NCBI GenBank assembly: GCA_016840165.1
Contig: JAEOSU010000051.1
Span: forward strand, 223,090 to 287,089
Source: Promethearchaeota archaeon
GTDB taxonomy: Archaea; Asgardarchaeota; Lokiarchaeia; Sigyniarchaeales; SOKP01
Length of the DNA: 64,000 bases
Direction: 5' to 3'
Shown here: piece by piece, positions 44,984 through 55,098 of the stretch
Layout: each line of letters opens with the position of its first letter
Position numbering within the stretch: position 1 is the first letter of the stretch
The notes under the pieces: model-generated
Databases searched by the model: none
Seen by the model: only the letters and a program-made list of their open reading frames with translations
Told to the model about the DNA's origin: nothing
Position numbers and translations under genes: made by a program

Positions 44984-45226
44984 TCAAATTTCAGTGTTTA
45001 GATTCTTAATCAATGACAATAAATATTGAGCATGAAATGATTCTTTATCATCTAATTGATCATAAGAACTAATATACTCAGTTAATTGTTTTTGTTTTTC
45101 CAAAAATTCTATTTCTATATAACCCTTAGAGAAATCTAAAATGAAATCTCTATAACCTTCATAATATTCTTTTTCTTTTACAATGTCCGAAAATTTTACT
45201 AAAGTTTCCATTTTTTTCACATCCAT
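44984..45226 (-). CDS. Small helical protein; stand-alone paralogue of the helical hairpin of 49539-50177
   Basis: Ungapped 50-aa alignment with 19 identities to the 212-aa protein; may start at MET (45211). Confidence 0.75.
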   Translation of the reverse strand: MDVKKMETLVKFSDIVKEKEYYEGYRDFILDFSKGYIEIEFLEKQKQLTEYISSYDQLDDKESFHAQYLLSLIKNLNTEI

Positions 45227-45286: not shown

Positions 45287-45320
45287 AATTTGATAAGAAA
45301 AATTTTAAGAGATTTGACAA
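45287..45320. promoter_or_regulatory. Copy 1 of shared upstream element AATTTGATAAGAAAAATTT-N8-TTGAYAA
   Basis: Exact 19-bp match to 50236-50254 plus a second TTGAYAA at the same 24-bp spacing. Confidence 0.6.
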
Positions 45321-47759: not shown

Positions 47760-48743
47760 CTATTTTTTGAGAAGTTCAGTTGCTACATTGAACGCATGTT
47801 GATAATCAAAGATTTTTAGACCTTTAGTTTTAGCAGCCTCTTTCAATATTTCAGCCTCTGAATTAGCTTTCAATCTTCCCAATGCTAATGCTCCTATCCC
47901 AAAAATTCCAGGATATATCTCATCATTTTTGTGTTTTGGTTTAATCCCCTCAATTCCATATGGTGGGACTAGATTAATATCAACAGCTAACTTTTTTCCT
48001 GTTAATTTTTGCATCCATTCTTCGGATAAAATTTCCACTCCCGCTGCAGCAAGTGACCAAATAATGTCCGCTTCTTGAGCTATCTCAAATCGTTCTTCAA
48101 ATGCTGGAGCAAAAACACCGTTGATCTTTATTGCTTCTTCACCTGCCTCTTCAGTTAATTCCTTAGCTAAATTTTCGATAAATTCTTCACTGGATTTATC
48201 CCATGTTTCTACTATAGAGGTATTACAACCAATTTTTGCCGCTAAAATAGCTGCTATTCTTGCTACTGGACCCGCACCAAAAATGACAACTTTTTTCCCT
48301 TTCAAATCATTTATTCCATGCTTTCTATTTGCGATATCAATTGTCATTGCTACCACCGCAGATGCCGTCGTATGAGATCCACGCGGATCAATGACTATAG
48401 GGCATTCAAATGGAGGTACTAATGACTTCTTTACGGCCTTCGCTATCTTTTCACCCTCTTTAACGTCAGATCCTCCTATAAAGAAAGTAGTGGGAGCGTT
48501 TGGTTTACGGGAAAAGATTGCATCTTGCACAAGTTTTGGAACATAATCCGCTTTCATTTTACTGACAGGTACCACGATATCAAAACCTGCATCATAGGCC
48601 ATATTTATATCAAATGGAGAGGCATTTTCATCAGTATCAAAAAAATAACAAATTTTATCAAAATTATCTTGCTTCTTAATGAAAATGGGGGTTAGCTCAA
48701 TGATAGATTTTCCCAATATACTTTTTGTTTTTCTTTCGACCAT
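47760..48743 (-). CDS. NAD(P)-dependent methylene-tetrahydromethanopterin/THF dehydrogenase (MtdA/MtdB-like)
   Basis: FDTDENASPFDINMAYDAGFD, VQDAIFSR, FIGG, PPF, DPRGSHTTASA, GAGPV, DINLVPPYGIEG, GIGALALG. Confidence 0.82.
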   Translation of the reverse strand: MVERKTKSILGKSIIELTPIFIKKQDNFDKICYFFDTDENASPFDINMAYDAGFDIVVPVSKMKADYVPKLVQDAIFSRKPNAPTTFFIGGSDVKEGEKIAKAVKKSLVPPFECPIVIDPRGSHTTASAVVAMTIDIANRKHGINDLKGKKVVIFGAGPVARIAAILAAKIGCNTSIVETWDKSSEEFIENLAKELTEEAGEEAIKINGVFAPAFEERFEIAQEADIIWSLAAAGVEILSEEWMQKLTGKKLAVDINLVPPYGIEGIKPKHKNDEIYPGIFGIGALALGRLKANSEAEILKEAAKTKGLKIFDYQHAFNVATELLKK

Positions 48744-48785
48744 TATTTTCAACTCTTTTTTGCTATTTTAAATTTAATAATTAAA

Positions 48786-49517
48786 TTATTTAGTAATATC
48801 AATTTCAACTTCCTTTTCCAGTTCTTCTTCCACTTCTTCTGTTTTTATCGTTCGTTTTATTTTCACTTGCTCAGATTCGATTCCTAAGTCCTTTGTTAAC
48901 TTTTCAATTCCATCAAAGTGGCGAGGATCGCATATAAATAAAGCCTTTAGCTTCTTTTCATTTATCTCGCGTGCTAGATTTAGGATATTCATCATCATCC
49001 ATGCTTCTCTTACTTTATAACGAACTTCATCTTCTTGAGTATTATAATCTTTTTGCATATATTCTTTCCATAGTACTAATTGCTGAAAAAATTCATCCTT
49101 TTCAGGATTTTTACCCTGGTTCTTAATTATATCACGAATTCTGTTTTCAAGATTTTGGATCATCGAACGATGTTCATCTAACGCAGAAGATAAATATAAT
49201 TCAGCATTTTCTGAAATATCTGCATGTTTGAAAGGAATCTTATATTTTGCAAACAATGCTTCTAGTGGATCATTTTGATTTAATCCATTATCCCAAGAAT
49301 TTGGTTTCTCTTCAACTGCGAAATTAGGCCTATATTTTTCTATTAACGATTCAATCAGTTGCAAATACTCTTTCGAAATTAAATGGAGATTCCATATAAG
49401 ATCGTCTTTTACTTCTTTCGGTACTTCAAACCACCAGTCGATAGGAAACTCACTTTCGACCATTATTAATTTTAAATACTTATCCTTTAAAGGTTTTAAT
49501 TCTAACACTTCTGGCAT
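48786..49517 (-). CDS. Hypothetical protein, paralogue of 49539-50177 (possibly TraB/Tiki/EreA-ChaN-like fold with helical insert)
   Basis: Shared EVLELKP, IP....DI...A..YL and R..W....L.LA; also KYRPNFAVEE and ALFICDPRH. Confidence 0.65.
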   Translation of the reverse strand: MPEVLELKPLKDKYLKLIMVESEFPIDWWFEVPKEVKDDLIWNLHLISKEYLQLIESLIEKYRPNFAVEEKPNSWDNGLNQNDPLEALFAKYKIPFKHADISENAELYLSSALDEHRSMIQNLENRIRDIIKNQGKNPEKDEFFQQLVLWKEYMQKDYNTQEDEVRYKVREAWMMMNILNLAREINEKKLKALFICDPRHFDGIEKLTKDLGIESEQVKIKRTIKTEEVEEELEKEVEIDITK

Positions 49518-49538
49518 TTATAATCCCCTCATTATATT

Positions 49539-50177
49539 TTAAAAAATTACATTTTGAATAATATGCTTTTTATTATAGGACACAACTTTCACTCCTAATT
49601 CTCTTAAATTTTTTGTTATTTCTGGGCAAATTTCCTCACAAATATCTTCTTGGACAAAATGAACAAATACAATAACATTCTTGTCATAGGATGCTGCTAA
49701 ATCTAACATTTTTTTAACTATCCATTGGGGTCTTAGTTGTAAACTAAGAAAGTTCTCCTTTTCCTGAATCTCGACTCCTAGCATATCTATCCAATTTTTC
49801 AAACTAAGTCCTTTGTATGATTCCTTATCTTTCATGCTTTCATATTCTTCAAATAATTCTGTTTGAAGTTGCTGTTTTTCTATAATTTCTTGATATAAAT
49901 ATCCCATTGCATAATCTGGGATATCTACTTGAAAGTAAGGAATGTTCAGTTTCTCTAATGTTTGTGCAAAAGGAGTTTTACTAAATTCCCTCATGATTAC
50001 TTGAAAGTCAACCGTTACAAAATTAACGCCATTCTTCTTTAAAAATACTATTAATTTTGATGGATCCATATCCTGAAAGTATTTAGCATTCTCTTTTGAG
50101 CTAATAAATGCTGTAATTTTCCTTTTTTTTATTGGTTTTAATTCTAAAACTTCCATTTTTTTATACACCTCATTCAA
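49539..50177 (-). CDS. Hypothetical protein, paralogue of 48786-49517 and 44984-45226
   Basis: Same shared motifs; likely start at MEVLELKP (50156) after a GAGGTG RBS. Confidence 0.65.
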   Translation of the reverse strand: MNEVYKKMEVLELKPIKKRKITAFISSKENAKYFQDMDPSKLIVFLKKNGVNFVTVDFQVIMREFSKTPFAQTLEKLNIPYFQVDIPDYAMGYLYQEIIEKQQLQTELFEEYESMKDKESYKGLSLKNWIDMLGVEIQEKENFLSLQLRPQWIVKKMLDLAASYDKNVIVFVHFVQEDICEEICPEITKNLRELGVKVVSYNKKHIIQNVIF

Positions 50178-50207: not shown

Positions 50208-50443
50208 TTGATAATCCTCTTGTCAAAATAAAAAGAATTTGATAAGAAAAATTTCTGATATTTTGATAATTCTATTAATCAAAACTTCAAATCGTACAAT
50301 TTTTCTTGTTATATCAAAAATCTACATTCCCTTGCCCAAAGTTGATAATCAATTTTTTGAATTCAAAAAGGTCATGATCAATTTCAGACAAATTTAAATA
50401 GTTGGGTAACAATCATTATCATGGAGAAAAATAAATTTGTCAA
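50208..50443. promoter_or_regulatory. Divergent promoter region with six TTGAYAA half-sites, including copy 2 of the shared 19-bp element (50236-50254)
   Basis: TTGATAA at 50208, 50239, 50263 and 50342; TTGTCAA at 50220 and 50437; palindrome TTTTTGAATTCAAAAA at 50354-50369; TATA-like TTTAAATA at 50393-50400. Confidence 0.55.
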
Positions 50444-50492
50444 AATAATAAACTAACAAAAAAGATAATCAAAAAAAAGGTGGGGGGATTGT

Positions 50493-53036
50493 ATTACGGA
50501 AATTTATTCAATCTTGTCACATCCCTTTCGTAGGAAAATTCTTTTCATATTAGAAAAAGAAGGCTTTATTCCCTATACAGATTTAATGGAGAGGTTAGGG
50601 GTAGATCAAACGGGTCAATTGAACTTTCATTTAAAAAAACTTGGTTCTCTCATCGATAAAGATAAAAAGTCTTATTTCTTGACAGAGGACGGAAAGAGAG
50701 TCCTTAAATTAATCAATGTCAATAAGCGTATCCTTTCTGGGGAAGATCTTGAATATTTAGGAAAGAAGGGAAGTGAAATTAACCGTATTGGAGTAATTAT
50801 ATGCAATTGCAATACAGAAATATCCAATGTAATAAACATTAATGCATTAGAGCATTATATTGAAAAGTTAGATGGGGTAGTTTCTGTTAATGTTTTTGAC
50901 AATTTATGTCAAGAAAAAAACTTAAATAAAATAACTAGCTGGACTAAAGATAATTTTTTAAATAAAATCGTGATAGCCGCATGTTCACCAAAAACCCATC
51001 AGAATATTTTTGAACGAATTTTTAAGGGGATAATTGAACGGGCTAATATTGAAATAGCTAATATTAGAGAGCAATGTTGTTGGGTACATCATTCAAATGA
51101 TCAACAATTTGATCCATTATTAGCATTAAAGAAAGCGCAACTGCTCGTTGAAGCTGCAGTTGAGCGGATCAAAATGCAAAAGAAGATATTAATTAAAACA
51201 GTCGAGGTTGAAAAAAGTTGTGCGATATTGGGTGGTGGTATTGCAGGTATGACTTTAGCATTGAATCTTTCCTCTGCTGGCATTAAAGTATATCTTATTG
51301 AAAATTCACCAACTTTAGGAGGAAAGATAGCTAGATGGTATCGGGTTTCTAATATGGGTGATTGTTCAATTTGCTTTACTTCAGAGCTCATAGGTGAAAT
51401 TGTTAAAGAAAAGAACATTGAAATTTTTACTAATACTGAAGTTGAAATGGTCTCTGGAGATGTAGGAAATTTCACTCTAAATTTACTAAAAAAACCCCGA
51501 TTTGTTGACGAAAAGAAGTGTACAGGATGTAAACAATGTATAAGTGTATGTGCCAAACAAAAAGTGGATGATTATGAATTTGGACTGAATAACTGTAAAA
51601 TTATTCATTTTCCCTTCCAAAACTGCTATCCATATGCTCCGATAATCAATGAAGATGATGTCAAAAGCTGTTTAGATTGTAGAATTTGCGAAAGGGTATG
51701 TATTAATAATGCCATTGATTTAAATCAGAAACCTGAAGAGATACAAATCAAGGTAGGGGCAAAGGTTATAGCTATAGGGGCTGATCTTTATAATAAATTA
51801 GATGAATATCATTATAATCCTAAAAAAGATATTATAACGAATGCTCAATTCGAACGCCTTTTATCCGCTGATGGGATAACAGAAGGTAATTTGATTCGTT
51901 TGTCAGATGGAAAACCTATCAAATCAATCTCAATTATCCAAGAGGTTGGACCGTCATCTTATCTTACAGAATATTCGGAAATTTTGGCAAAGAAGTATAT
52001 TGAAGATATTAAAATAAAAAGTCCCGATTGCGAGGTAAACGTTTTTTATGATTTAAGTAAGTTAAAAGACAAAAATGAAGTTTTGTTGCGAACAACTAAT
52101 CCAAGTTTTATGTATGCCAATAGCTTATCTATTGCATCCAATAAACATCTAAATTATGTAATTGCAGATAATATAGAATTTCCAAGCGATTTGATCGTAT
52201 TAAATGTTAAATATGTGCCAAATAAAGATTTAAAGATTCTTCGTAGATTTATGGACTTTACATTAATGGACGATGGGTTTATGAGTGAAGAAACATTAGC
52301 CTCAGGGATATATGGTATTGGTACGATATTTGGTCCCTTAAGTTATCAATCAACCATCTCAACTACAAATAGGGTTGCCCTAAAAGTAATTTCTTTGCTA
52401 CTTAATGAATATTTAATAGCTGAATTCACTGGAATTGAAATCAATGAAGATAAATGCGGATTATGCGGATTATGCGTTAAATCCTGTCCCTATAATGCTA
52501 TAAGTATCGAATCAGATAAAATTACTATCGATAAATTCAAATGCAAGGGATGCGGGACCTGTGCAAGTGTATGTCCTACTAATGCTATTGAAATGAATAT
52601 CGATACCTCAAAAAAGATTATGAAGACTATTGAAATATATTCAAAATTCAATAAAGGTCCAAAAATTATAGCTTTTTGTTGCCAATCATGTGGTTATGCT
52701 GCAGCTGATGATGCAGGTCTTAAAAAGGAAATCTATCCTCCCCATATTTTTGTTGTACGCATACCATGTACAGGGCGGTTAGATACGGAATTTATCTTTA
52801 AATCATTTGAGATGGGATTTGATGGAGTGATGGTGATAGGCTGTAGAAAAGATGCTTGTAGATATATCGATGGTATAGAAAAAGCAAAGCAGAGAGTTCA
52901 GTTATTAAAAAAGATATTAGAACCAAAATTTAGAAATAGGATTATTTTAATGAATTTAAATGCCGTTGAAGGCCATAAATTCGCTGAAACGGCTAATAAA
53001 TTTTATAATCTTTTAAATGAGGTGGCTAAAAATTAA
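50493..53036 (+). CDS. Winged-HTH - HdrA-like flavoprotein - MvhD fusion (start uncertain: ATT 50493 or TTG 50514)
   Basis: wHTH: SILSHPFRRKIL...TGQLNFHLKKL...YFLTEDG. HdrA: RIGVIICNC, AACSP, NIREQCCWVH, GGGIAG, DCSIC and ferredoxin motifs. MvhD: AFCCQSCGY, RIPCTGR, GCRKDACRY. Confidence 0.88.
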   Translation: MTEIYSILSHPFRRKILFILEKEGFIPYTDLMERLGVDQTGQLNFHLKKLGSLIDKDKKSYFLTEDGKRVLKLINVNKRILSGEDLEYLGKKGSEINRIGVIICNCNTEISNVININALEHYIEKLDGVVSVNVFDNLCQEKNLNKITSWTKDNFLNKIVIAACSPKTHQNIFERIFKGIIERANIEIANIREQCCWVHHSNDQQFDPLLALKKAQLLVEAAVERIKMQKKILIKTVEVEKSCAILGGGIAGMTLALNLSSAGIKVYLIENSPTLGGKIARWYRVSNMGDCSICFTSELIGEIVKEKNIEIFTNTEVEMVSGDVGNFTLNLLKKPRFVDEKKCTGCKQCISVCAKQKVDDYEFGLNNCKIIHFPFQNCYPYAPIINEDDVKSCLDCRICERVCINNAIDLNQKPEEIQIKVGAKVIAIGADLYNKLDEYHYNPKKDIITNAQFERLLSADGITEGNLIRLSDGKPIKSISIIQEVGPSSYLTEYSEILAKKYIEDIKIKSPDCEVNVFYDLSKLKDKNEVLLRTTNPSFMYANSLSIASNKHLNYVIADNIEFPSDLIVLNVKYVPNKDLKILRRFMDFTLMDDGFMSEETLASGIYGIGTIFGPLSYQSTISTTNRVALKVISLLLNEYLIAEFTGIEINEDKCGLCGLCVKSCPYNAISIESDKITIDKFKCKGCGTCASVCPTNAIEMNIDTSKKIMKTIEIYSKFNKGPKIIAFCCQSCGYAAADDAGLKKEIYPPHIFVVRIPCTGRLDTEFIFKSFEMGFDGVMVIGCRKDACRYIDGIEKAKQRVQLLKKILEPKFRNRIILMNLNAVEGHKFAETANKFYNLLNEVAKN

Positions 53037-53796
53037 AGTAAAAGTCATCATCGAATCTTTAACTTCTTGTAGTGGATGTATTTTAACATTGCTTTCATTA
53101 GATGTGTTTCCTCAATTTTTAGAAAGAACTGAAATTACTTATTTTCCATTTATATCAGATAAAAAAGAATTTGTAAAGTCAGACATAGCCCTAGTCGAGG
53201 GATGTGTTTCAGAAGCATCTCAAATAGAAACTTTAAAGACTATACGTAAAAATTCTGTAAAATTGTGTGCACTAGGAACTTGTGCTGCATTTGGAGGTAT
53301 TATGGGGCTTTCGAAAAGAAAAAAATCGGATCCAATTTCAAAATTTGTAGATGTCGATTATGTAATTCCAGGTTGTCCTCCTCCTATTAACTTATTAGGA
53401 AATGCTTTAATGGATCTTGTCGAAAATAAACCTATAAAGTTACCAGAAAAGAATATGTGTTATTCTTGCCCCTTGAAGGGGGAAATGAAAAAAAACCTTA
53501 ATACGCCAATCTTAAGACTTTTCCCTCAGAATTCTAAATTGAACTCAAAAGAAAATGAACAAGAATGTTTTTTAAAAAGAGGAATATTATGTTTAGGTCC
53601 CATAACTCGAGAAGGATGTGATCACAAATGTATTGAACTGGGTATTCCATGTGAAGGATGTTTAGGACCTGTTTCCAAAGATTATACCTCCAATCTAATT
53701 AATTTTTTAAGTCTAGTACCTCTTTCGAATAAATTGAAACGATATTCTGGTATCTTTAATCGATTTTCAAAACCGGTATTAAAGAGGTGTTCATAA
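53017..53796 (+). CDS. mvhG: [NiFe]-hydrogenase small subunit, group 3c (MvhG-like)
   Basis: SCSGC, VEG, GTCA, PGCPP, CYSC, CFL..G.LCLGPITREGC..KC...GIPCEGC.GP. Confidence 0.88.
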   Translation: MRWLKIKVKVIIESLTSCSGCILTLLSLDVFPQFLERTEITYFPFISDKKEFVKSDIALVEGCVSEASQIETLKTIRKNSVKLCALGTCAAFGGIMGLSKRKKSDPISKFVDVDYVIPGCPPPINLLGNALMDLVENKPIKLPEKNMCYSCPLKGEMKKNLNTPILRLFPQNSKLNSKENEQECFLKRGILCLGPITREGCDHKCIELGIPCEGCLGPVSKDYTSNLINFLSLVPLSNKLKRYSGIFNRFSKPVLKRCS

Positions 53797-55098
53797 TTGC
53801 AAAAAGTAATTGAAGTATGTCATCGAGTAGAGGGTCAGGGAAAGATTAACTATTTTGTACAAAATGATAAAATAGATCACGTTAATTTTGTACTATCAGC
53901 CGTGAGGGGATTTGAAAATATTTTAATAGGTAAAAAACTGCAGGATATACCTAGAATTGTCTCAAGAATTTGTGGATTGTGCCAAGCTTCTCAAACAATT
54001 GCAAGTTGTAAAGCGATTGAAGAAATATATGGAATAAAACCTAGCTTTCAATCAATTTTGATTAGGAGACTTCTCATGTCAGCAGAATTAATTAAATCCC
54101 ACATAATTCATTTTTTCTTCCAATGTCTTCCTGATCTTTTAGAGCTCTTTCAAAATGAAGATAAAAATATGGATATTTTTAACTTGATCAAATTAGATCC
54201 TCAATTAACCTCAAGCGTTTATGATTTAATAAAAGCCGCAACAGAAATAAGTCATATTTTTGGTGGAAGAATGATTCATTTGATTACTCCCACCCCTGGT
54301 GGAATGATATATAATCCTTCTAAAAAAAATATTTTACTTGTAAAAAGATATTTACAAAAAGCTTCTACCAATATTGACTATATTCTTCAGAAGTATGTAG
54401 ATCTATTCTCTCAAAAACAACCACCTGAAGATTTTAATTTACATAGCTTAAATATGTTAGGAATGCTTAATGAAGGTCATTATGATCGCTATAATGGAAG
54501 TATACACATAATGCAATCTAATGGAAATGAGATTGAATTTGATGTTTTAGATTATGAGAATTATTTTACCAAAGATGCGAACTTATTTGGGATAAAATTC
54601 TTAATAGATGATCATAAACCAATTTTAACAGGGCCAATTGCGCGATATAGCCTTTGTAGAAATAATAGTCTCAGTATGTACAATTCATTATTGAAGCATT
54701 TTGATATGAGATGGAAAAATAATATATTATTTGTAAATTTTCTACAATTATTAGAGATTTTTAATGAAATTAAGACAAGTGCCGCTATGCTTGAACATAA
54801 TAATTTAGAAAATCATGAATCACTACCTAATCTTAATACTATCGCAAATTATAATGGCATTGGAAATGTAGAAGCTCCCCGTGGGACTCTTGTCCATCAT
54901 TATCATGTAAATAAATCTAATATAGTTGATAAAGTTAAATTATACATACCAACTGAAATAAATTTCCCTTTATTGAATGAAAGCATTAAAGAGTATGCTC
55001 AAAAATTATATGAAAAAGAAGATATTGCGACACTTAATAGAAAAGTTCAGCGCATGGTTAGAGCTTTTGATCCATGCATAGCCTGTGCTACACATTAG
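53797..55098 (+). CDS. mvhA: [NiFe]-hydrogenase large subunit, group 3 (MvhA-like), without C-terminal extension
   Basis: RVEG, RGFE, L1 RICGLC, EAPRGTLVHHY, L2 RAFDPCIACATH directly followed by TAG. Confidence 0.88.
   Translation: MQKVIEVCHRVEGQGKINYFVQNDKIDHVNFVLSAVRGFENILIGKKLQDIPRIVSRICGLCQASQTIASCKAIEEIYGIKPSFQSILIRRLLMSAELIKSHIIHFFFQCLPDLLELFQNEDKNMDIFNLIKLDPQLTSSVYDLIKAATEISHIFGGRMIHLITPTPGGMIYNPSKKNILLVKRYLQKASTNIDYILQKYVDLFSQKQPPEDFNLHSLNMLGMLNEGHYDRYNGSIHIMQSNGNEIEFDVLDYENYFTKDANLFGIKFLIDDHKPILTGPIARYSLCRNNSLSMYNSLLKHFDMRWKNNILFVNFLQLLEIFNEIKTSAAMLEHNNLENHESLPNLNTIANYNGIGNVEAPRGTLVHHYHVNKSNIVDKVKLYIPTEINFPLLNESIKEYAQKLYEKEDIATLNRKVQRMVRAFDPCIACATH

Follow-up and report, generated by a model that had tools for sequence, protein, structure and literature searches.

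A winged helix fused to an HdrA-MvhD protein without its HA4 cluster: a putative DNA-binding hydrogenase subunit in Asgard archaea

What can be the role of an HdrA protein that carries a putative DNA-binding domain and has lost the iron-sulfur cluster leading to HdrBC? This question is raised by a gene located at positions 50493-53036 of a 64,000-nucleotide stretch of a Lokiarchaeial genome, hereafter the window (Promethearchaeota archaeon, assembly GCA_016840165.1, contig JAEOSU010000051.1, positions 223,090 to 287,089). The window, with about 30% G+C, comes from contig C30 of a genome of 3.6 Mb (99.7% complete), which its homologues place among the Lokiarchaeia-type Asgard archaea, labelled "Promethearchaeota" by NCBI. 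Hydrogen-dependent syntrophy is considered the way of life of Asgard archaea, whose "MvhADG-HdrABC" genes are commonly interpreted as encoding an electron-bifurcating heterodisulfide reductase system. That reading cannot hold for this Lokiarchaeial locus, since its HdrA is devoid of the cluster called HA4 and no hdrBC genes are linked to it. An earlier note, made from the DNA alone, had proposed a redox sensor. The analyses presented here indicate that the fusion protein is very likely a redox-active hydrogenase subunit, predicted to bind DNA and unable to feed HdrBC. A role as sensor or regulator is plausible, for reasons that differ in part from those first given, namely the operon, changes in the large hydrogenase subunit MvhA, an upstream palindrome and a linkage with Mtd-like genes.

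The gene forms a single open frame on the forward strand (50493/50514..53036) and encodes one protein, of 847 residues from ATT 50493 or 840 residues from TTG 50514, in which an ArsR-like winged helix-turn-helix (wHTH), a full HdrA and an MvhD follow one another. Residues 1-82 (50493..50738) constitute the ArsR/SmtB-like domain, recognized by Pfam (DUF7347, residues 3-74, E 8e-12), by AlphaFold2 modelling and by Foldseek. They are followed by a flexible linker (residues 83-97, 50739..50783), with a per-residue model confidence (pLDDT) of 50-64 in the full-length model, and by the HdrA N-terminal cluster domain (50784..51197) with its ligands C104, C106, C139 and C164. The FAD-binding, thioredoxin-reductase-like domain (51198..52412) retains the GGGIAG motif and the C291/C294 pair, and contains within it the inserted ferredoxin domain with two [4Fe-4S] clusters (51498-51722). 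A C-terminal ferredoxin domain, also with two [4Fe-4S] clusters (52413..52637), and the fused MvhD/FlpD [2Fe-2S] domain (52638..53033) complete the protein, all these parts being read on the forward strand. Pfam also detects a flavin adenine dinucleotide (FAD) Rossmann motif at 244-283, three Fer4 stretches and FlpD/MvhD (PF02662) at residues 725-843 (E 9e-35). When compared by phmmer with the PDB, residues 94-714 align with the methanogen HdrA of 8rvu and 5odc (E 1e-101 to 1e-97) and residues 723-842 with solved MvhD (5odc_D, E 1.6e-24). The full-length AlphaFold model has a mean pLDDT of 88.3 and is matched by Foldseek to HdrA 8rvu_A with a template-modelling (TM) score of 0.85 and to MvhD 8rvu_F with a TM score of 0.91.

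The start codon is non-canonical, either ATT at 50493 or ACG at 50496, and is preceded by a strong GGTGGGGGG site. Orthologues have ATG, TTG or GTG at the homologous position, and the three nearest species (among loci L017-L019 and L066) have ATA. Since the residues ahead of the first TTG (EIYSIL, in helix 1 of the wHTH) are conserved, near-cognate initiation is likely for the fusion gene. Locus L066 also presents ATT/ACG after GGTGGGGGG, as in window 50478-50516.

The most distinctive feature of the protein is the loss of HA4, the [4Fe-4S] cluster of the HdrA reductase domain. According to published structures, the high-potential electron that leaves the bifurcating FAD in methanogens reaches HdrC/HdrB through HA4 (PMC12350162, PMC13580544, PMC9012536). 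At residues 481-494 (51933..51974, forward strand), IQEVGPSSYLTEYS stands in place of QCVGSR..YCSxxCC. In the alignment with PDB sequences, the methanogen segment CVGSR...YCSRVCC faces QEVGPSS------YLTEYSEIL, and none of the four HA4 cysteines is left, as the earlier note had reported. The same genome encodes seven other full-length HdrA paralogues and all seven keep CVGSR..YCS..VCC. The lost cluster contrasts with the other ligands, which are retained: among 121 family members, C104, C106, C139, C164, the C291/C294 pair (equivalent to methanogen Cys197/202/205) and the eight cysteines of each ferredoxin domain, inserted and C-terminal, are 100% conserved, C730, C733, C759, C784 and C789 of MvhD are invariant, and so are G247, G249 and G252 of the FAD motif. 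The list of kept ligands first drawn up therefore stands, except for the cysteines of EQCCWVH, which are not canonical ligands: the methanogen HdrA has DS at this place, C195 is typical of the family and C196 is variable. Cys195 (120/121) and Cys513 (117/121) are family-specific conserved residues. The second half of the reductase domain had also been described as shortened; the HdrA part is indeed about 21 residues shorter than the methanogen enzyme, a modest difference.

Between this gene and its closest orthologue (95.7% identical), the ratio of nonsynonymous to synonymous substitution rates (dN/dS) is 0.055 over the whole length, with values of 0.0125 for the wHTH and 0.027 for the surroundings of the lost site. 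With the other ligands invariant, this bears out the suggestion that the loss was not a random decay: it is selective and under strong purifying selection. Because HA4 is absent, the Lokiarchaeial form cannot be a heterodisulfide-reducing bifurcating enzyme. The view that the input wire is kept and the catalytic output lost has to be narrowed, since the clusters of the inserted ferredoxin, which form the low-potential output, are intact; only the high-potential output is lost, and the protein may still catalyse electron transfer towards ferredoxin. A reversion of the second Rossmann subdomain to NAD(P) binding was also considered and rejected, its sequence having no GxGxxG-like loop.

Concerning the paralogues, four of the canonical HdrA genes of this genome (G000; C105:7151-9142, C29:61271-63250, C79:12667-14640 and C9:36527-38503) contain two or three in-frame TGA codons exactly at positions of cluster-ligand cysteines, and are predicted on this basis to be multi-selenocysteine HdrA, consistent with the published Asgard selenoproteome (PMC11227280). 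The wHTH-HdrA has a cysteine codon at every site where these paralogues have TGA.

The fusion gene belongs to a unit of three genes. It overlaps at its end an MvhG-like [NiFe]-hydrogenase small-subunit gene (53017..53796, forward strand; 5odc_E, E 1e-35), which is followed by an MvhA-like large-subunit gene (53797..55098, forward strand; 5odc_F, E 4e-55), the MvhA and MvhG of the Mvh-Hdr complex (group 3c) being the best solved relatives of both subunits. This unit was found in 24/24 complete loci from several Asgard families, and in these 24 loci no hdrB or hdrC homologue was found within the conserved unit; CCG-domain genes occur elsewhere in the genome, and 5-6 kb upstream in some loci. The large subunit of the window (L0 motif RVEGQ, L1 motif RICGLCQASQ, C-terminus DPCIACATH) keeps the four Ni-Fe cysteines in RICGLC and DPCIAC. 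It differs from the reference MvhA, which has CGICQVAH and 25 further residues after the terminal motif, in having Gln for the conserved L1 His (CGLCQASQ) and a stop codon directly after CATH, hence no tail. The two changes follow the state of HA4: every HA4-null locus of the Lokiarchaeia class has the L1 Gln (CGLCxxxQ) and a stop at or a few residues past CATH, whereas in every HA4-positive locus L1 ends in His and the protein has a tail 7-12 residues long. A Gln in place of this His has been described as characteristic of regulatory hydrogenases (PMC5665086), and H2 sensors are noted to be without the C-terminal extension (PMC7294309).

The distant HA4-positive relatives also show unusual surroundings of the active site in their large subunits, f31 (L054-L058) having RVGGP/RGGGP as L0 with loss of the proton-relay Glu, f19 (L059-L062) RIEGE/RIEGD as L0, and f28 (L049-L053) the C-terminal motif DPCISCSSV with no terminal His. 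The only other [NiFe] hydrogenase of genome G000 is encoded at C19:2213-6396; its large subunit is 22% identical, with a standard RLEGH motif, its small subunit has 472 residues, and HdrC-like and HdrB-like genes come directly after it, with no adjacent HdrA.

That the N-terminal domain is a genuine ArsR-like wHTH, as initially supposed from about 85 residues of sequence, is confirmed by the structural comparison. Modelled alone with AlphaFold2, residues 1-95 reach a pLDDT of 88.6 and adopt the ArsR topology, with helices 1-4, a beta-hairpin wing and helix 5. The nearest structures found by Foldseek are all DNA-binding repressors (CadC, YodB, NolR, an archaeal ArsR, PagR and BigR), CadC, YodB, NolR and PagR giving TM scores of 0.62-0.72 and a root-mean-square deviation of 2-3 Å for some 80 residues. 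Hardly any variation is seen in the recognition helix TGQLNFHLKKL, where T40, G41, N44 and H46 are invariant even in relatives of 32-37% identity. When two copies of the domain were modelled together, the interface score ipSAE was 0.46, against 0.02 for the best of three controls, a mark reached by 20/30 proteins solved as pairs and by 1/23 solved as single chains. At least 69% of the contacts were common to the runs, the partner pLDDT was at least 81, and the modelled interface involves helices 1 and 5, which is the dimer mode of ArsR; as ArsR dimers have already been solved, this result may show likeness only. No metal- or thiol-sensing site was identified within the wHTH domain itself. The low-confidence linker ties the wHTH to the HdrA N-terminal domain, which belongs to a redox-driven mobile arm in the methanogen complexes (PMC12350162).

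The divergent intergenic region contains the palindrome TGATAA-N5-TTGTCA (50209..50225), a candidate operator, a direct repeat TTGATAA-N17-TTGATAA (50239..50269) forming a distal element nearer to the divergent gene, and a proximal TTGTCAAA element (50437..50444, forward strand) lying 49-56 nt upstream of ATT 50493 (listed at -59 when counted from the extraction end), whose position is conserved within the genus. The element TTTGACAA occurs in 17/26 non-redundant upstream regions of the family for 0.7 expected, at conserved positions, and is under-represented genome-wide (189 for 288 expected). The palindrome is in its common form an 18-bp site, TGAYAA-N6-TTRTCA, with variants TGAYAA-N5-8-TTRTCA in which the spacer is mostly 6 nt. 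It is present in 34/86 non-redundant upstream regions for 0.14 expected (maximum 2 in 300 shuffles), and is found in the distant f19, f21 and L013 at 52-97 nt before the start codon. Genome-wide, 13 copies were counted for about 14 expected, the one at 50209-50225 included, so that the palindrome does not serve as a promoter word in general. When all 5-mer inverted repeats were scanned without bias, GACAA-N6-TTGTC (10 for 0.01 expected) and GATAA-N6-TTATC (10 for 0.12) came out. The heptamer TTGWYAA is not enriched across the whole window (104 for 95 expected), the enrichment being confined to the local cluster, the octamer and the palindrome. The palindrome thus has the appearance of an operator for a dimeric wHTH, and the fusion protein is a candidate for binding it. 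A second TTGATAA...TTGACAA copy at 45287-45320, upstream of the gene of an 80-residue paralogue (44984-45226, reverse strand), suggests that the same type of site may serve several genes of the neighbourhood.

On the other side of this intergenic region, the divergent genes (47760..50177, reverse strand) encode paralogous proteins of 212 and 243 residues (u212 and u243) and an Mtd-like (Mpt_N) dehydrogenase; a Cdc48 gene is also part of the divergent upstream group of the window. The u212 protein is a weaker paralogue of the u243 domain. For u243 itself (48786-49517, reverse strand) no Pfam match was obtained, and the closest cluster that bears a name in the ESM Atlas, the TraB/GumN family, has a weak score (0.82) that is a lead only. 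Of the 53 family loci whose flanks are long enough, 28 show the divergent arrangement and six more have it within 6 kb; it also occurs in families f4 and f21. In f31 (5/5), f19 (4/4) and L013, a single gene placed directly after mvhA fuses a u243-type domain to the Mtd-like one (domain matches E 1e-32 and 2e-63; a protein of about 580 residues), examples being L058:676-2427 (reverse), L060:731-2458 (reverse) and L013:9511-10845 (forward). The Mtd-like gene and its partner thus accompany the hydrogenase unit in at least five deep lineages, which makes the linkage an old one; a regulon and a metabolic partnership would both fit.

Other neighbours are less constant. A conserved gene of 311-343 codons with no Pfam match follows mvhA in the window (55135/55231-56166, forward strand) and in about 30/80 related loci. 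Its identification as a histidine kinase was rejected, the gene being unrelated to the kinase found at that position elsewhere: a membrane histidine kinase follows mvhA in about 5/80 loci (L009:12685-14659, L118, L124 and L129 among them), and is not present in the window. In L009 this kinase is followed by a response regulator with an AsnC-type HTH, which recalls the pairing of regulatory hydrogenase with HoxJ.

The fusion could still be an accident of one genome or of its assembly, and its distribution answers this point. More than 120 clusters with 63-96% identity and about 849 residues, nearly all with PF24038, and 178 relatives in species-representative genomes show a conserved fusion and not a chimera; orthologues of the same architecture number in the hundreds and lie on long contigs and closed chromosomes. 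A deep profile-free search recovered wHTH-bearing distant relatives at 36-41% identity. In 400 searched genomes of the phylum, wHTH-containing matches fall into the family of the window, f1 (about 91/134 genomes), and eight further families (f2, f4, f5, f6, f19, f21, f28 and f31). Only paralogue-level matches were found in the 4.4-Mb single-contig genome G135 of a sister family. A complete Asgard-type locus (Cdc48, Mtd, u243, u212, wHTH-HdrA, MvhG and MvhA) was also met under the label 'Candidatus Nanopelagicaceae bacterium' (L158, DATKTW010000111.1), which is probably a mis-binned contig.

The comparison of families contradicts the earlier proposal that the wHTH goes together with the loss of the HA4 cysteines, since all four are kept in the wHTH-bearing f19, f31 and f28 and in the metagenome loci L012, L013 and L015. 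A single one is left in f21, and every member examined from the Lokiarchaeia class has between none and two. The order of events was obtained from a maximum-likelihood tree, from the alignment of which the wHTH had been removed and which was rooted on wHTH-less HdrA and HdrA-MvhD proteins. It contains one wHTH clade (support 100/100) with a single HA4-null clade nested inside (100/99), f21 being sister to the HA4-null clade (98/93), followed by f28. As the HA4-null clade nests within HA4-positive wHTH proteins, the fusion is older than the loss of the cluster, which was a single derived event in the Lokiarchaeia-type branch.

Taken together, these data lead us to lean towards an autoregulating, H2/redox-responsive 'trigger' hydrogenase that would have shifted towards sensing in Lokiarchaeia, a reading that we place slightly on the probable side. 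The fusion protein would be the electron-transfer subunit of an Asgard-specific three-gene [NiFe] hydrogenase and would bind DNA as well. H2 would be split or formed at MvhA, and electrons would pass through the MvhG clusters to the fused [2Fe-2S] of MvhD, then to the HdrA flavin and its five remaining [4Fe-4S] clusters, in exchange with ferredoxin. The wHTH, held by its flexible linker to the mobile-arm domain of HdrA, may dimerize and bind TGAYAA-N6-TTRTCA near the operon promoter, so that H2 and/or the ferredoxin pool, by setting the redox state of the complex, would control its own operon and probably the u212-u243-mtd genes; DNA binding, its redox control and the target genes are all inferred. 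The ancestor, with HA4, the L1 His and the C-terminal tail, was probably a trigger enzyme, that is, a catalyst that also regulates. In the Lokiarchaeia branch, the loss of HA4, the change of the L1 His to Gln and the loss of the tail could mark the shift towards a dedicated H2/redox sensor.

A more radical form, which we hold only tentatively, is a one-component H2 sensor in which the hydrogenase/flavoprotein complex would itself act as transcription factor. Once H2 had reduced the flavin and the clusters in the HA4-less HdrA, a redox-driven swing of the mobile arm would reposition the two wHTH domains, and their binding at TGAYAA-N6-TTRTCA would switch the own operon together with the linked Mtd-like Wood-Ljungdahl genes. 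Lokiarchaeia could in this way read the H2 partial pressure directly.

Several observations weigh against a regulatory role. Nothing is missing from the low-potential path, from the [NiFe] ligands or from the FAD site, and the complex may be a fully active enzyme; an abundant [NiFe] hydrogenase of Lokiarchaeum ossiferum (PMC11216029) would argue against a pure sensor if it belonged to the same family. The catalytic groups 4c, 4e and 4g also have no C-terminal extension (PMC7294309), and in regulatory hydrogenases the Gln apparently plays no part in the sensing of H2 as such (PMC5665086). The loss of HA4, the His-to-Gln change and the loss of the tail map to essentially one lineage, so their co-occurrence amounts to one or two events and is not statistical evidence of coupling, and f21, which has the L1 His, shows that the decay of HA4 preceded the His-to-Gln change. 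The pattern of the palindrome was defined after inspection of the data, even if the unbiased scan agrees, and at this stringency it is absent from 52/86 upstream regions. Finally, the Mtd linkage could reflect a metabolic complex instead of a regulon.

The rival explanation that survives best is a purely metabolic one, which we consider unlikely on balance. The complex would then evolve or consume H2 as a non-bifurcating H2:ferredoxin oxidoreductase independent of HdrBC, perhaps with the u243/Mtd-like proteins in a Wood-Ljungdahl pathway of the tetrahydromethanopterin (H4MPT) type, and the wHTH would have no part in regulating transcription and would serve only for dimerization, scaffolding or nucleoid tethering. 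The conservation of the [NiFe] ligands, of the MvhG and MvhD clusters, of the FAD motif and of the ferredoxin-branch clusters speaks for it, as does the high expression of Asgard group 3c hydrogenases in culture and in situ (PMC11216029, PMC11291895). The same holds for the u243-Mtd fusion co-transcribed after mvhA in f31, f19 and L013 and present as separate divergent genes in f1, f4 and f21, a linkage typical of subunits or pathway partners. On the other hand, u243 is poor in cysteine and, from what is generally known of MtdA/B, Mtd-like proteins have no one-electron cofactor able to accept the electrons of Fe-S clusters. A merely structural role of the wHTH also fits badly with its nearly invariant recognition helix and its dN/dS, the lowest in the protein, and with a specific palindrome that accompanies the operon across deep lineages, whatever the neighbours. 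Moreover, the near-cognate start codons ATT, ACG and ATA in the genus suggest low expression.

It appears improbable that the enzyme is still bifurcating, the high-potential partner being reached by another route and the wHTH providing simple autoregulation. Such a route could consist of a cluster supplied by a partner, of Cys195 and Cys513, or of a bound enzyme using NAD(P) or a C1 carrier (e.g., the Mtd-like one) that would take a hydride directly from FAD. The conservation of the two family-specific cysteines is in agreement with this, but two cysteines cannot ligate a cubane cluster. Hdr-like, FrhB-like or CCG-domain clusters are found just upstream in 38/80 family loci, whereas the upstream neighbourhoods vary and the conserved unit itself is without hdrB and hdrC. 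MetFV-HdrABC-MvhD complexes do show Hdr modules serving C1 enzymes, as related by PMC9012536 with reference to Mock et al.; in the present protein, as we read its sequence, the second Rossmann subdomain has no dinucleotide motif of the GxGxxG type. Finally, only the missing motif and the non-canonical start codon would point to a pseudogene in decay or to a fusion produced by chance or during assembly, and this explanation is rejected as hardly conceivable in view of the dN/dS, the hundreds of orthologues and the invariance of the other ligands.

A hydrogenase equipped with a DNA-binding domain of its own would represent a new mode of H2 sensing. To our knowledge, H2 sensors have not been reported from archaea. 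A protein, an 18-bp site and candidate targets would then offer a testable handle on the H2 response of the closest prokaryotic relatives of eukaryotes. Even if the complex were mainly catalytic, a conserved Fe-S flavoenzyme fused to a repressor-type domain would remain, and the passage from HA4-positive through partial to HA4-null forms provides a natural series for the rebuilding of a bifurcating module. Our literature search found no publication describing a wHTH-HdrA-MvhD fusion; a survey of archaeal fusions mentions HdrA-HdrA-MvhD fusions and not the wHTH (PMC11237513).

Among known systems, the methanogen MvhAGD-HdrABC complex (PDB 5ODC, 8RVU, 7BKB and 9SW2) is one of the closest. The HdrA domain order, the FAD site, the N-terminal cluster, the Cys197-type pair, the inserted and C-terminal ferredoxin domains and MvhD are shared, and its MvhG and MvhA are the best PDB matches of the two hydrogenase subunits. 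The Asgard protein differs by its N-terminal wHTH, by the fusion of MvhD to HdrA and by the absence of HA4, and the Asgard unit by the absence of hdrBC, the L1 Gln and an MvhA without C-terminal tail. HdrA-MvhD fusions without a wHTH, such as Methanosarcina HdrA2 and the proteins P0127 and P0129, also have a C-terminal MvhD, a length of about 780-800 residues and 33-35% identity, but they keep CVGSR..YCS..CC and form the outgroup to the wHTH clade in the tree.

With the group 2b regulatory hydrogenases (HoxBC-HoxJ and HupUV), the Lokiarchaeial unit shares the L1 Gln and the lack of an extension of the large subunit (PMC5665086, PMC7294309). An output on transcription, as in group 2b, is proposed for the Asgard unit through its putative DNA-binding domain. 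The differences are that its nearest relatives belong to group 3c, that a fused DNA-binding domain takes the place of the histidine kinase, which is adjacent in only about 5/80 loci, and that a flavoprotein with five [4Fe-4S] clusters is interposed. The fold and the predicted dimer of the wHTH resemble those of the ArsR/SmtB, HxlR and MarR repressors (CadC 1u2w, NolR 4omy, YodB 5hs9 and PagR 2zkz), but here the domain is fused to a redox enzyme of 750 residues. PutA, a proline dehydrogenase flavoenzyme with an N-terminal DNA-binding domain, is a trigger enzyme. Although this domain is of the ribbon-helix-helix type and PutA contains neither a hydrogenase nor an Fe-S chain, the two proteins have in common the association of a redox flavoenzyme with a DNA-binding domain, predicted in the Asgard case, and candidate operators in their own divergent promoter region.

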